This document shows, in pieces, positions 3,241-10,475 of a stretch of 32,000 bases of DNA. A model generated the notes under the pieces. That model was not told the DNA's origin and did no database searches. It saw only the letters and a list, made by a program, of their open reading frames with translations. This stretch comes from Haloquadratum walsbyi C23 (GTDB lineage: Archaea; Halobacteriota; Halobacteria; Halobacteriales; Haloferacaceae). The DNA lies in contig NC_017459.1 in assembly GCF_000237865.1 (NCBI RefSeq), positions 660,001 to 692,000 of the forward strand. Direction: 5' to 3'. Position numbers and translations under genes: made by a program. Position 1 is the first letter of the stretch. Each line of letters opens with the position of its first letter.

Positions 3241-3261
3241 ATTCTTGCATTCTATAATATA

Positions 3262-3698
3262 ATTGATATTCTCCTCCGCGTAAACGTGGAGGAATCCTGA
3301 GCGTAAGCATTGGAGATTTCAGGTTTGCAGTTCCACCGAACGGCACGGTGAGAATCCGTGTGGGGTTCACGGACTGTGGCGAGTCGAGTGGGACTGCTGG
3401 GAGTGACACATCTCAGCCCCCGGTACTCCTGTCCTCCATCGTGTTCGGACTCCCGGAGTTGGTTGTGCCTCGGGGAGTGCGGCAGATTTCGACGGACTCG
3501 GAGTTACTTTCTGCGGTGTTTGCAAGCAGTCGGGCACTGCAACTGCATCTGCATCGGTTCAGTATATTATATGAACCGACCGTTCACCTGACTGGTTCCG
3601 ATTACTGTCTGAGTGCTTGGGGCGGACAGGCCGCCATCGTCGGAGTGAGCGGAATCGCCCTATTTTGATCTGATTCCTATCTATAGATAGGCTTGCCT
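3262..3698 (-). mobile_element. Non-autonomous IS200/IS605 (IS1341-type) derivative, PATE/MITE-like, ~437 bp: left end + tnpB 3' remnant (omega-RNA scaffold region) + right end
   Basis: Read on the minus strand, the element ends ...GGATTCCTCCACGTTTACGCGGAGGAGAATATCAAT (hairpin 3272-3293, TCAA(T) terminus at 3262). The left end has a perfect 16-nt palindrome CCTATCTATAGATAGG (3676-3691) preceded by TTGAATTGAT (3708->3699). Inside are tnpB C-terminal relic frames (..ACPP.., DADAVAV.., SNSESVE..GSPNTMEDRSTGG*). It is a paralogue of 9803-10240 and much more GC-rich than its flanks. Confidence 0.6.
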
Positions 3699-3764
3699 AT
3701 CAATTCAATCTCCGGAGTCCCAAATCTCAGCGTGGCTATTGCAGGGTAGATTTCCTCTGGGGTG

Positions 3765-3800
3765 TCGGATTCATCCTGTGGCTGAACCCGCAGGTGTTCT
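3765..3800 (+). repeat. Solo IS1341-type right-end hairpin relic
   Basis: cGGATTCatCCTGTGGctgaacCCGCAGGtg forms a 7-bp stem (3775-3781 with 3788-3794, one G-U pair). It has the same GGATTC-hairpin layout as the other right ends. Confidence 0.35.
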
Positions 3801-4000
3801 GCTTGACCCTGTATACTAAACTACCCTTATTGACTTTGATAGGAAAAGCGCCCAGTTGGGGGTTACACACTCAAAACCGTATTACACAATCACGAGTTGA
3901 TGCCCTCTCAGCGTCCCATATGAAAGTGTGCTTTTGAGAATAAAGGAAGCACATGATGTAGAGGCTCATCATCTCATCTCAGTCCTATCGTTGGAAGAGA

Positions 4001-4661: not shown

Positions 4662-5290
4662 TACAATGTCTCTGATGTAGCGACAGATAGACACGAAAAC
4701 GAAGCCCACGAAGGCACCGAAGATGAGATTAAAGCCACTGGTACCGGTGTTCACGTTCACGCCCCGAAGAACTGGTGCAGTGCGGACATGAATATTGTCC
4801 AATCGTGTCCTGCGTGTGGGTTCAGGATGGATATAGGTGCAAACGCGCCAATCAACATTTTTCTCGTGGTTTCGAAAAGCGAGGACTGCGAGAGTCCGAA
4901 GCTACGACGCCTGTGGAGACTGCGCTGCCTCTGTTCACAATCACTGGCGCATCAACGTCTGTGGATGGAACATACATTGTGAAGTACCTCGGGGTCAAGC
5001 CCCGAGGCACTCTGCCTGTTAATCTGTAGAAACAGGAATTCACACCCTACTCAACTGCTGATTCGGCTTCCGTGAGAATAGGGTAATTCACCTCATATGA
5101 CCGATTTTGATGCCACCTTTGTTTATATACATATCATAATTCTCCGTGTGAGTCAGTACCACGTACTTGACGCCTTGAGACGGACATATTCGCGACCCTA
5201 CGCTACCAAAGCAATTAAATATCGATGGAATATATGATACAATACCAGAACGCCTCCGGCGTTCAGGCGGAACAGCACGCAGGATGATCG
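4662..5290 (+). mobile_element. Truncated IS1341-type (IS200/IS605) element: tnpB 3' remnant plus right-end region
   Basis: It contains the pseudogene listed next, a perfect 8-bp hairpin at 4987-5007 (CCTCGGGGtcaagCCCCGAGG), and a right-end-like hairpin at 5255-5271 (TCCGGCgttcaGGCGGA) followed by caggatgatcgg. The left boundary is uncertain. Confidence 0.5.
4700..5029 (+). pseudogene. tnpB: tnpB (IS1341-type RNA-guided nuclease) C-terminal fragment, frameshifted
   Basis: One frame reads ..KATGTGVHVHAPKNWCSADMNIVQSCPACGFRMDIGANAPINIF. This matches the TnpB layout G..V..V.P..TS..C, then a CxxCG zinc ribbon, then the D.D.NAA.NI RuvC-III motif. A second frame continues ..SEATTPVETALP..KYLGVKPRG. 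No N-terminal part is present. Confidence 0.55.
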
Positions 5291-7835: not shown

Positions 7836-8008
7836 TCATCATATTGCCACTCACTCGAGTGTGAAAATCAGACTCATAGATGGTACAGGCGCAATACCAC
7901 ACCGTGTAGTAGTTAATAAAAGAACTGTGTGCTTAATTAGACATGCATCGGTCAGGGTAGTTCTCTCGCATCGAATTAGTGAATCAGTTCACCCAGAAGT
8001 TTGTTGAA

Positions 8009-8491
8009 TCATTAAACGGCGTGGATACACGCCGTCATACTGTGGTTTCCAACCGGTTTTGCTGGACAACGGCGCATTGGCTCTGACACCGATGTAGCCG
8101 AGTGCCCGAAAGGTTGCGGTTCGAGTGTGAGTGTCCGCCCACGCTGGAAACAGGGTGTGCCCAACGCGGGAATCAAACAACCATCGGGCTATCGTCACCA
8201 ATACAAGTAACTCCGAGTCCAGTGAACCCGAATGCCGACCACTGACCACCGCTCCTGTGGCACAACCAACACAGGGACTTCGCCTCGGGTGAGGATAGCG
8301 GGGGCTTGGCACTCCCCGGAGATTGCCCAGTGACCGGTCACACATCGATTCCAACGGTGTGCTGGCTTGGTATTGGGAGTCTGCAAAGCAAAACCAAAAC
8401 CAAAACCCAAACCTGGACCTGACACTCCCGACCAAGCGAAGCGGTACGGTGCCGTGATCCCTCCCGCCTTCAGGTGGAGGGGAATATTAAT
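8009..8491 (+). mobile_element. Non-autonomous IS1341-type derivative (PATE/MITE-like), ~483 bp, related to but distinct from the 3262/9803 family
   Basis: TTGAA (8004-8008) immediately precedes a left end carrying a perfect 8-bp hairpin ACGGCGTGgataCACGCCGT (8016-8035). Inside are tnpB relic frames (..DVAECPKGCGSS...VPNAGIKQ.., ..SNSESSEP..). The right-end hairpin CCTCCCGCCttcaGGTGGAGG is followed by GGAATATTAAT ending at 8491. Shared blocks with the other family include AGTAACTCCGAGTCC, GGCACAACCAAC and AAACCTG.A...ACTCCC. The element is GC-rich. Confidence 0.55.
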
Positions 8492-9802: not shown

Positions 9803-10240
9803 ATTGACATCCTCCTCCGGGTTCACGCGGAGGAATCCCGAGCGTTGGGAGTTTCAGGTTCAACACTCCCACCGAACAACCAGCCAGTGCGAATCTGAAG
9901 GGTTGTTCGCGGTCTGAGACGGGTGCGGGGGCGGGTGGGACTGCTGGCGGTGCCAAGCCGCCGGTACTCCTATTCTCGACCATGTACGGCGTCCAAGCGC
10001 AAGCGTTGTTTTTGCCGCAGGGACGCCGGCAGGCGTTAGCAAACTCGGAGTTACTTTCTGTGGTGTTTTCAAGCAGTCGGGCACTGCAACTGCATCTGCA
10101 TCGGTTCAGTATCGGAACCGACCGTTCACCAGACTGGTTCCGATGATTGTCTGATTGCTTGGGGCGGACAGGCCGCCATCGTAGGATTGGCGGGAATCGC
10201 TCTGTTTCCAACCGATTCCTGTTTTATGGTGTGATTGCCT
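9803..10240 (-). mobile_element. Non-autonomous IS1341-type derivative (PATE/MITE-like), ~438 bp; paralogue of 3262-3698
   Basis: The minus strand ends ...GGGATTCCTCCGCGTGAACCCGGAGGAGGATGTCAAT, with the terminus at 9803. A 70-nt block (10043-10112) matches 3496-3565 at 68/70 positions. The blocks GTGGGACTGCTGG and CCGGTACTCCT are conserved. The tnpB relic frame is the same as in the paralogue (..SNSE..ENRSTGG.., ..LKLPTLGIPPREPGGGCQ). GC-rich. Confidence 0.65.
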
Positions 10241-10272
10241 CTCAGTTAAATATGTGTATTTTGAAGTTTGAA

Positions 10273-10475
10273 TCGAGCGACGATAGTAGGATTTTGGAGG
10301 GCGTGACGGCGCGTATCCACGGTCTGAAGGCCGTGGTATTGCGCCTGCTCAGCATATAATTAGACGACTCACATTAAAAATCGCGCGCGAAAGCGTCGTT
10401 AAACCTCGAGGAAACATGGAACCTCAAACTCCCCTTCGGGGAATCCTCTCGCTTTCGCGCCGGGAGAGTGTCAAT
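10273..10475 (+). mobile_element. Minimal IS1341-type derivative (~203 bp): left-end hairpin + right-end hairpin only
   Basis: TTGAAgtTTGAA (10261-10272) precedes the left end. A long imperfect hairpin spans 10308-10345 (GGCGCGTATCCACGGtctgaaggCCGTGGTATTGCGCC). The right end GGAACCTCAAACTCCCCTTCGGGGAATCCTCTCGCTTTCGCGCCGGGAGAGTGTCAAT ends at 10475. It parallels the 9803 end (GAACCTGAAACTCCC....GGATGTCAAT). Confidence 0.5.

Follow-up and report, generated by a model that had tools for sequence, protein, structure and literature searches.

PATEs (palindrome-associated transposable elements) are non-autonomous derivatives of insertion sequences (ISs) of the IS200/IS605 type (IS1341 group). In Haloquadratum walsbyi, they are represented by HqIRS56, an element of 532-574 bp with the 5' boundary TTATA followed by TGCTGAGCAGGCGCAATACCACG and the 3' end CGGGATTCCTCCGCGTGAACCCGGAGGAGGATGTCAA (Table S9, Dyall-Smith 2011, PMC3119063). 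Each H. walsbyi genome contains about 75 HqIRS56-type copies, with 7 strain-specific HqIRS56 insertions per strain, and the 3' end of HqIRS56 is similar to the one found in ISHwa21, which is of the IS1341 type and whose transposase is undisrupted (PMC3119063). Because it predates omega RNAs, the 2011 paper contains neither a guide-scaffold reading nor a covariation analysis of HqIRS56. Meers 2023 (PMC10055086) describes PATEs as often encoding omega RNAs that are acted on by TnpB in trans. Here we analyze a stretch of 32,000 nt from H. walsbyi C23 (contig NC_017459.1, positions 660,001 to 692,000; hereafter, the window) that carries two related non-coding elements on the minus strand, copies A and B. 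Most probably, these are HqIRS56-type PATEs, representatives of two subfamilies, with an omega-RNA-like scaffold that is usable by a TnpB acting in trans.

Copy A extends from 3263 to 3811 (549 nt) and copy B from 9804 to 10354 (551 nt). Each consists of a hairpin-containing left end located 3' of the TTATA target, a domain of ~230 nt that is specific to PATEs, an omega-RNA-like scaffold of ~250 nt, and a right-end hairpin followed by TCAA (Table 1). The GC content of the copies is 54-56%, compared to 47% for the window, and the family profile matches A and B with nhmmer E-values of 5e-77 and 3e-71, respectively. The presence of two minus-oriented, GC-rich paralogues, noticed in the initial annotation of this DNA, is thus borne out by an alignment far beyond chance, but the lengths of 437 and 438 bp and the left boundary given there are not: megablast comparison with related loci extends the family homology ~115 nt further, to 3811 and 10354. 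The similarity between A and B ends near 3698 and 10240 because the two copies have different types of left ends. At the right end, the reported hairpin with G(A/G)AT(A/G)TCAA stands, and the final T that had been appended to it belongs to the flank. The block with 68 of 70 identical positions and the mosaic pattern of conservation are both real. By segment, A and B are 47%, 49%, 63%, 91%, 69% and 76% identical, and the mosaic appearance is due to a central segment that is ~90% conserved family-wide, with the ends and the scaffold stems following subfamily lines. The closest relatives of copy A are Halorubrum copies, and those of copy B are copies from Haloquadratum J07HQW1 and Natronomonas aquatica (77-96% identity by segment).

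To collect the family, one genome per species was scanned for GTGGGACTGCTGG and CCGGTACTCCT separated by a gap of 5-35 nt, which returned 67 loci. The scaffold is carried by these loci in at least 11 named haloarchaeal genera (Halorubrum, Natronomonas, Natrinema, Haloquadratum, Natronoglomus, Halolamina, Natrialba, Salinarchaeum, Salinadaptatus, Halapricum and Natronoarchaeum) as well as in several metagenome-assembled genomes (MAGs), nearly all of them Halobacteria. The boundaries were aligned for 41 complete copies, and the flank logo was derived from 37 non-redundant ones. TTATA is found 5' of 33 of these 37 copies, with random sequence at positions -6 to -10, and homology is lost sharply after TCAA in 61 copies, again with a random 3' flank; the consensus 3' end of the sense strand is ...GGATTCCTCCGCGTTyACGCGGAGGAGGATGTCAA. 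The ends are intact and sharply bounded across the at least 11 genera, at 75-95% identity, the flanks are unrelated among copies, and the insertion sites are not conserved. Several genomes contain multiple copies, including 6 on a single Natrinema gelatinilyticum chromosome. None of the ~60 usable copies contains a tnpB-length open reading frame (ORF) of its own, and no ORF conserved across the family was seen. There are near-terminal palindromes at both ends and no inverted terminal repeats, the 4-5 nt target oligonucleotide lies 5' of the element and is not duplicated, and A and B are non-coding and too short for a transposase. Copy B matches both published HqIRS56 termini and is therefore an HqIRS56 copy. 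Copy A combines the HqIRS56 3' terminus, with substitutions, and an alternative, type-1 left end, which makes it one of the 'heterogeneous' members of this type. The interpretation of the two copies as decayed tnpB genes does not hold: the elements belong to a mobile, non-autonomous family that is present in multiple genera and has already been named.

As had been surmised from the sequence, both copies share, in their 3' ~250 nt, homology with the omega-RNA/right-end part of intact, ISHwa21-like TnpB elements of the IS1341 type. The scaffold profile matches four TnpB-linked loci, L051, L068, L070 and L071, with nhmmer E-values from 1e-25 to 5e-19. Three of these, L068, L070 and L071, are complete elements. 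They have TTATA or TTATG as the target, a left end of one of the two PATE types, a tnpB gene encoding a 437-438-aa protein, a scaffold starting from AAGTAACTCCGAG, and the same right-end hairpin as the PATEs, with the terminus GGATGTCAA. Over ~50 nt, their left ends share 82-100% identity with those of PATEs (82% for copy B and the Natrinema element L070). In L051, the scaffold match overlaps the 3' end of the TnpB ORF, and the common features are the right end and the scaffold core, the left end falling outside the locus. A search with the L051 TnpB fragment (E<=1e-30) yielded a clade of 1120 proteins, with many haloarchaeal genera among the matches listed; the best 120 of the 1120 are mostly 437-442 aa long (376-453 aa overall) and share 79-91% identity with the query. 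Intact ISHwa21/26 are listed for both H. walsbyi strains in the published tables.

The homology is also apparent at the level of RNA families and of the relic reading frame. In Rfam scans run at E<=10, copy B matches the full sot0042 model (RF02656) at 9813-10056, with 38.6 bits and an E-value of 2e-7; across the family, full-model scores are 34-52 bits for PATE scaffolds and 49-86 bits for TnpB-linked ones. In the parental elements, the 5' two-thirds of the scaffold encodes the C-terminal tail of TnpB (..NQSNSES..EDRSTGWLAQPGV..). In the PATEs, this frame is faintly visible over the last ~40 codons only (..SNSES..EDRSTGGLA.P.V..), and a tblastn search of A and B with the cognate TnpB finds the last ~40 residues only. 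Of the relic that had been described as running from the zinc ribbon to the stop codon, the tail thus survives and no zinc ribbon is detectable. No Pfam domain was detected in any of the 3 sense frames of A and B at E<=10, a scan in which the relic at ~4800 served as a positive control and gave a weak PF07282 match, and zinc-ribbon or RuvC relics were likewise absent from a tblastn search with the L066 TnpB.

The fold of the scaffold is maintained by compensatory changes, as proposed in the initial annotation. For 54 sequences, RNAalifold predicts 50 pairs, 16 of which show double compensatory changes. There are 131 double-change cells, compared to 31 expected from shuffles, 97.4% of the cells are paired, and none of the 500 shuffles is as high. 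When the 3' partners are slid by 1-3 columns, only 3-9 double-change pairs remain, with 35-52% pairing. Between A and B, 27 of the 44 consensus pairs are identical, 7 have changed on both sides and 6 on one side without loss of pairing, and the rest consist of 2 disrupted pairs and 2 that coincide with gaps. The three hairpins that had been noticed in the diverged part of the two copies are found at the positions reported there and correspond to helices 8+9, 6+7 and 4+5 of the family consensus (Table 1). From these compensatory changes, we infer selection on the RNA fold of the scaffold and on the end hairpins, as RNA or single-stranded DNA (ssDNA); the original suggestion that selection acts on a fold rather than on a protein is largely upheld. 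The two blocks GTGGGACTGCTGG and CCGGTACTCCT, considered single-stranded in the initial annotation, are predicted to be paired instead, AGGAGU with ACUCC, and GCAGUCCCACC with either GGUGGAACUGC, which is the Rfam pairing, or the upstream GACUGC; both blocks are fixed by the search pattern, so that covariation there cannot be judged. The helix GACUGC:GCAGUC that RNAalifold returned for a truncated alignment is probably an artefact that arose because CCAGUC, a partner located upstream, was omitted; a helix of the Rfam type, AGUCCCACC:GGUGGAACU, would fit equally well.

Covariation extends to the 5' half of the element, where 37 sequences contain 196 double-change cells compared to 65 expected. 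The left-end hairpin (helices 2-3) covaries across the family, and 11 of the 18 pairs in helices 13-15 show double changes. In the long hairpin immediately 5' of the scaffold, which also covaries strongly, CGGUUC/GAACCG varies to CGAUUC/GAAUCG, CACCCC/GGGGUG or GUACUC/GAGUAC, and the upstream GGAACC remains constant. Two mutually exclusive hairpins had been envisaged for the GGTTC/GAACC/GGTTC(C) triplet; this alternative pairing is ruled out because GGAACC never varies while the other two arms covary together. Between the left end and the scaffold, element positions ~54-286 show no detectable similarity to the parents beyond a short stretch near the presumed tnpB promoter, and BLAST of the region from the left end to AAGTAAC finds no similarity to full-length TnpB elements. 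Judging by these comparisons, the left ~300 nt is not derived from tnpB. The same region includes the most conserved sequence of the family, ACGATGGCGGCCTGTCCGCCCCAAGCA. A conserved TT(T/G/A)AAG near element position 107, a candidate promoter, corresponds in position to the TTTACAA box that precedes tnpB in the parents. The internal domain has no Rfam match at E<=10, and a short ORF in its invariant core (MAACPPQA..) was rejected as a candidate gene, its start codon missing in several members.

Table 1. Features of copies A and B in window coordinates
Feature	Positions	Strand	Sequence, basis or remark
Copy A, 5' target motif (transposon-associated motif, TAM, position)	3812-3816	minus	GTATA; consensus TTATA
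Copy A, left end with type-1 subterminal hairpin	3760-3811	minus	CCTGCGG..CCACAGG; 89% identity over 53 nt to Halorubrum TnpB element L068
Copy A, PATE-specific internal domain	3511-3759	minus	invariant core ACGATGGCGGCCTGTCCGCCCCAAGCA; long covarying hairpin ~3527-3597
Copy A, omega-RNA-like scaffold	3263-3510	minus	AAGUAACUCCGAG ... GGAGGAGAAUAUCAA; alignment with TnpB-linked scaffolds, covariation
Copy A, hairpin, helices 4+5	3447-3479	minus	
Copy A, hairpin, helices 6+7	3399-3421	minus	
Copy A, hairpin, helices 8+9	3337-3369	minus	
Copy A, right-end hairpin and terminal cleavage motif	3263-3296	minus	CCTCCACG TTTA CGCGGAGG, then AGAATATCAA; helix 11
Copy A, predicted guide segment (flank)	3243-3262	minus	UUAUAUUAUAGAAUGCAAGA; by analogy with TnpB omega RNAs
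Copy B, 5' target motif	10355-10359	minus	TTATA; flank logo, published boundary
Copy B, left end with type-2 subterminal hairpin	10295-10354	minus	GGCGCAATACCACGGCC TTCAG ACCGTGGATACGCGCC; same as published HqIRS56 5' terminus
Copy B, PATE-specific internal domain	10057-10294	minus	long hairpin ~10074-10141
Copy B, omega-RNA-like scaffold	9804-10056	minus	sot0042 match, covariation, published 3' terminus
Copy B, hairpin, helices 4+5	9988-10026	minus	
Copy B, hairpin, helices 6+7	9946-9962	minus	
Copy B, hairpin, helices 8+9	9873-9909	minus	
Copy B, right-end hairpin	9810-9834	minus	
Copy B, predicted guide segment	9784-9803	minus	UACCGAGGACGUGCACACAA; predicted by the same reasoning as for copy A

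The best-supported life cycle follows the published model for elements of this kind (Meers 2023), in which the element would be transcribed from the minus strand, with read-through of the right end into ~16-20 nt of the flank. The scaffold would be bound in trans by the TnpB of an ISHwa21-type element, and the resulting complex would cut the TTATA-adjacent empty site left by excision, recombination then restoring the copy. For movement, the end hairpins would have to be recognized by a TnpA supplied in trans. A and B may, in this manner, supply guides in trans to a TnpB. The H. walsbyi transcriptome includes abundant intergenic reads and HgcC-type RNAs; expression specific to the A and B loci was not found in two H. 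walsbyi transcriptome papers.

Several points weigh against this interpretation. The search pattern is an exact 24-nt match, which biases the sample toward close relatives and accounts for the invariance of the two pattern blocks, and the shuffles keep phylogenetic signal in. Strand-specific G.T pairs are expected alike from top-strand ssDNA and from RNA. With respect to the covariance-model check proposed in the initial annotation, the sot0042 match is full-length and the E-values are significant, but the PATE scaffolds fall short of the gathering score of 88 bits, as do their TnpB-linked relatives, and copy A has no Rfam match at all at E<=10. The first hairpin of the PATE scaffold is enlarged by ~50 nt, which could impair or alter TnpB binding. 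An intact cognate tnpB, another of the checks proposed, exists as a clade in relatives and, in the form of ISHwa21/26, in the published tables, but not within the 32-kb window, and these tables are the only source for the cognate in the same genome. Copy A may be inactive, as its target reads GTATA, its terminal motif carries two substitutions and its right-end hairpin contains an A.C mismatch. All steps of the mechanism from transcription on are those that we infer by analogy.

The covarying helices could, in principle, act in ssDNA only, aiding excision and integration by TnpA, with no role as an RNA guide. Top-strand hairpins are used in IS200/IS605 transposition, the left-end and right-end hairpins covary as TnpA recognition predicts, and the top-strand G.T pairs fit DNA equally well. 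However, TnpA requires just the subterminal hairpins and a few neighbouring bases, whereas 12 of the 16 double-change pairs in the scaffold are internal and positionally homologous to sot0042 and to TnpB-linked omega-RNA regions; furthermore, the CACGGAUUCUCACCG and UUGGCAC loops are invariant between PATE and TnpB-linked scaffolds, which fits protein-RNA contacts. A role in ssDNA accounts for the end hairpins but not for the internal helices that are homologous to omega RNA, and as the complete explanation, it appears distinctly unlikely.

The element RNA might also have a role of its own, either as a regulatory or growth-affecting small RNA, comparable to the PATE-derived VNG_R0052 of Halobacterium, or as a decoy for TnpB or TnpA that damps the parental elements. 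Halobacterium salinarum grew better when a PATE-derived RNA and when sot0042 was overexpressed (PMC4615843), PATE copies exceed intact parents ~20 to 1, and both the sequence and the structure of the ~230-nt PATE-specific domain, which has no known function, are conserved. Against such a role, the flanks, and hence the guides, are unrelated among copies, and the insertion sites are not conserved, which is the logic of a selfish element rather than that of a host gene; this possibility is highly unlikely in our estimate. Inert decay of tnpB, with the compensations as relics of ancestry, would agree with the lack of ORFs in the copies, the known propensity of H. walsbyi to delete and disrupt IS605-type elements, and the degenerate target and terminal motifs of copy A, but is improbable in the extreme and already largely refuted by the intact, sharp ends across genera, an internal domain that never was tnpB, double compensations far above the shuffled and slid controls, and the published strain-specific insertions.

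Comparison of individual family members yields several additional observations. Copy B is 91-95% identical to the Natronomonas aquatica copy L061 (1370-1893) both in the left end and in the part that runs from element position ~176 through the right end, with 77-82% identity in the stretch that separates them; for copies from two genera, these values are high and suggest a recent transfer from one genus to the other. In the 3' arm of the long hairpin, extra TGCAGA/TGCAGT hexamer repeats (window positions ~3537-3556 and ~10084-10103) are common, among the loci examined, only to A, B and the Haloquadratum J07HQW1 copy L008. That A and B share these repeats while belonging to different subfamilies elsewhere suggests that the subfamilies have exchanged sequence within Haloquadratum. 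Members from other genera repeatedly contain insertions of ~45-60 nt in or next to the terminal hairpins, some of them common to several genera: in the right-end hairpin loop (L036/L038), in the right-end hairpin (L071), just before the right end (L035/L045), in the internal domain (L041/L045), and in the left-end hairpin loop (L007/L036). These insertions look like small palindrome-targeting elements, as described for H. walsbyi. On a contig binned to an uncultured Bacteroidetes MAG, L062 (1203-1491) consists of the 3' ~280 nt, scaffold and right end, and lacks the PATE 5' half; either the contig was misbinned, or the sequence has been transferred to a halophilic bacterium. In L066, from a Salinarchaeum MAG (reverse-strand sense coordinates 510-2487), an IS is nested exactly in the long-hairpin loop of a PATE. 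The 454-aa TnpB located between the two PATE halves belongs to this different, nested IS, which has TCTAC as its target, CCTCGGGGCTTGACCCCGAGG as its hairpin and ..TTCAC (..CAGTTCAC) as its end, and L066 was accordingly rejected as a cognate full-length element. A 44-codon ORF ahead of the nested tnpB overlaps its start (ATGA) and looks like a ribbon-helix-helix protein; a divergent gene may be present upstream.

Other IS200/IS605-derived remnants accompany A and B, for a total of five within 7 kb; this crowd of IS605-type remnants and the 47% GC of the window are in keeping with Haloquadratum. A third, more diverged tnpB-less element occupies 7879-8490 on the plus strand, with the flank TCATA (7874-7878), a type-2 left-end hairpin, a scaffold at 8194-8489 (nhmmer E-value of 6e-16) and the end ..GGAATATTAA. 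Its left-end hairpin is split by an insertion of ~113 nt (~7905-8017), the behaviour published for a group of small mobile repeats (~110 bp) in H. walsbyi whose targets are near-terminal palindromes; the likeness is drawn from their description. The segment 8904-9086 (plus strand) is a full-length match to Rfam sot2652 (RF02657), with 127 bits, above the gathering score. It marks the omega-RNA region of a further IS1341-type element, which, its upstream frames being broken, is likewise a remnant and has no intact tnpB. The fifth remnant, at ~4790-5030 (plus strand), is a frameshifted relic of the TnpB C-terminus, with CPACGF..ANAPINI and ..TPVETALP.. in separate frames and a weak match to PF07282 (E-value of 0.1). 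There are no tRNA genes within the window.

This kind of element is already known as the named PATE family, and the idea that PATE omega RNAs are used in trans has already been put forward (Meers 2023). The new contributions are modest: covariation is shown explicitly for the scaffold, the cognate TnpB clade is identified, and the PATE-specific domain and the enlarged hairpin are recognized. Both these features are absent from the TnpB parents and are conserved, in sequence as well as by covariation, in at least 11 genera. A speculative and rather unlikely extension is that HqIRS56-type PATEs are more than pared-down ISs, namely, specialised 'guide-RNA parasites' of ISHwa21-type TnpB, with the ~230-nt domain and the enlarged hairpin as adaptations. 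If so, these features could provide the element with a promoter of its own, stabilize its RNA or aid in processing it, or give it an edge in competing for TnpB, and would allow the ~20 to 1 excess over the parents and the spread across genera. The family is a well-sampled case of a guide-RNA scaffold under selection after the loss of the nuclease gene, and it backs the view that, in archaea, TnpA, TnpB and omega RNA are modules that can act in trans. The parts of the scaffold that tolerate change (the 50-nt hairpin expansion and the covarying stems) and those that do not (the invariant loops and junctions) make up a map that is useful for engineering haloarchaeal TnpB guides. The conserved internal domain lends itself to direct tests in Haloquadratum, Halorubrum or Natrinema. 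For annotation, such loci are better labelled PATEs with an omega-RNA-like scaffold than tnpB pseudogenes.

Both strands of literature invoked in the initial annotation, on sense overlapping transcripts (sotRNAs; PMC4615843) and on haloarchaeal PATEs (PMC3119063), are correct and supply some of the closest comparisons. The omega RNAs or sotRNAs of TnpB elements share with the PATEs the right-end hairpin, the GGATGTCAA terminus, the order of helices, the left end and the TTATA target, along with the blocks AAGUAACUCCGAG, GAUAGGAGUACCGG, the UUGGCAC loop, CACGGAUUCUCACCG and GGUGGACUGCAAACC. Unlike the TnpB-linked elements, the PATEs lack tnpB, and the region that encodes the TnpB tail is non-coding in them; apart from the ~50-nt enlargement of the first hairpin, the PATE scaffold differs by ~12 nt added before the hairpin with the CACGGAUUCUCACCG loop, the one listed first in the initial annotation. 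The protein-less, PATE-like IS200/IS605 derivatives of Geobacillus stearothermophilus (PMC10055086) resemble A and B in possessing both ends and an omega RNA and in their proposed reliance on TnpA and TnpB in trans; they are bacterial and unrelated in sequence to A and B, and a large family-specific internal domain is not mentioned in the passages that concern them. VNG_R0052 of H. salinarum (PMC4615843) is, like A and B, a haloarchaeal, tnpB-less fusion of IS200/IS605 ends, and is transcribed, but at 99 nt, it consists mostly of the fused ends, without the full scaffold and the internal domain of A and B. HqIRS56 itself (PMC3119063) shows no essential difference from copy B, which has the same termini, falls within the published size range at 551 nt, and likewise lacks inverted terminal repeats, target duplication and an ORF.

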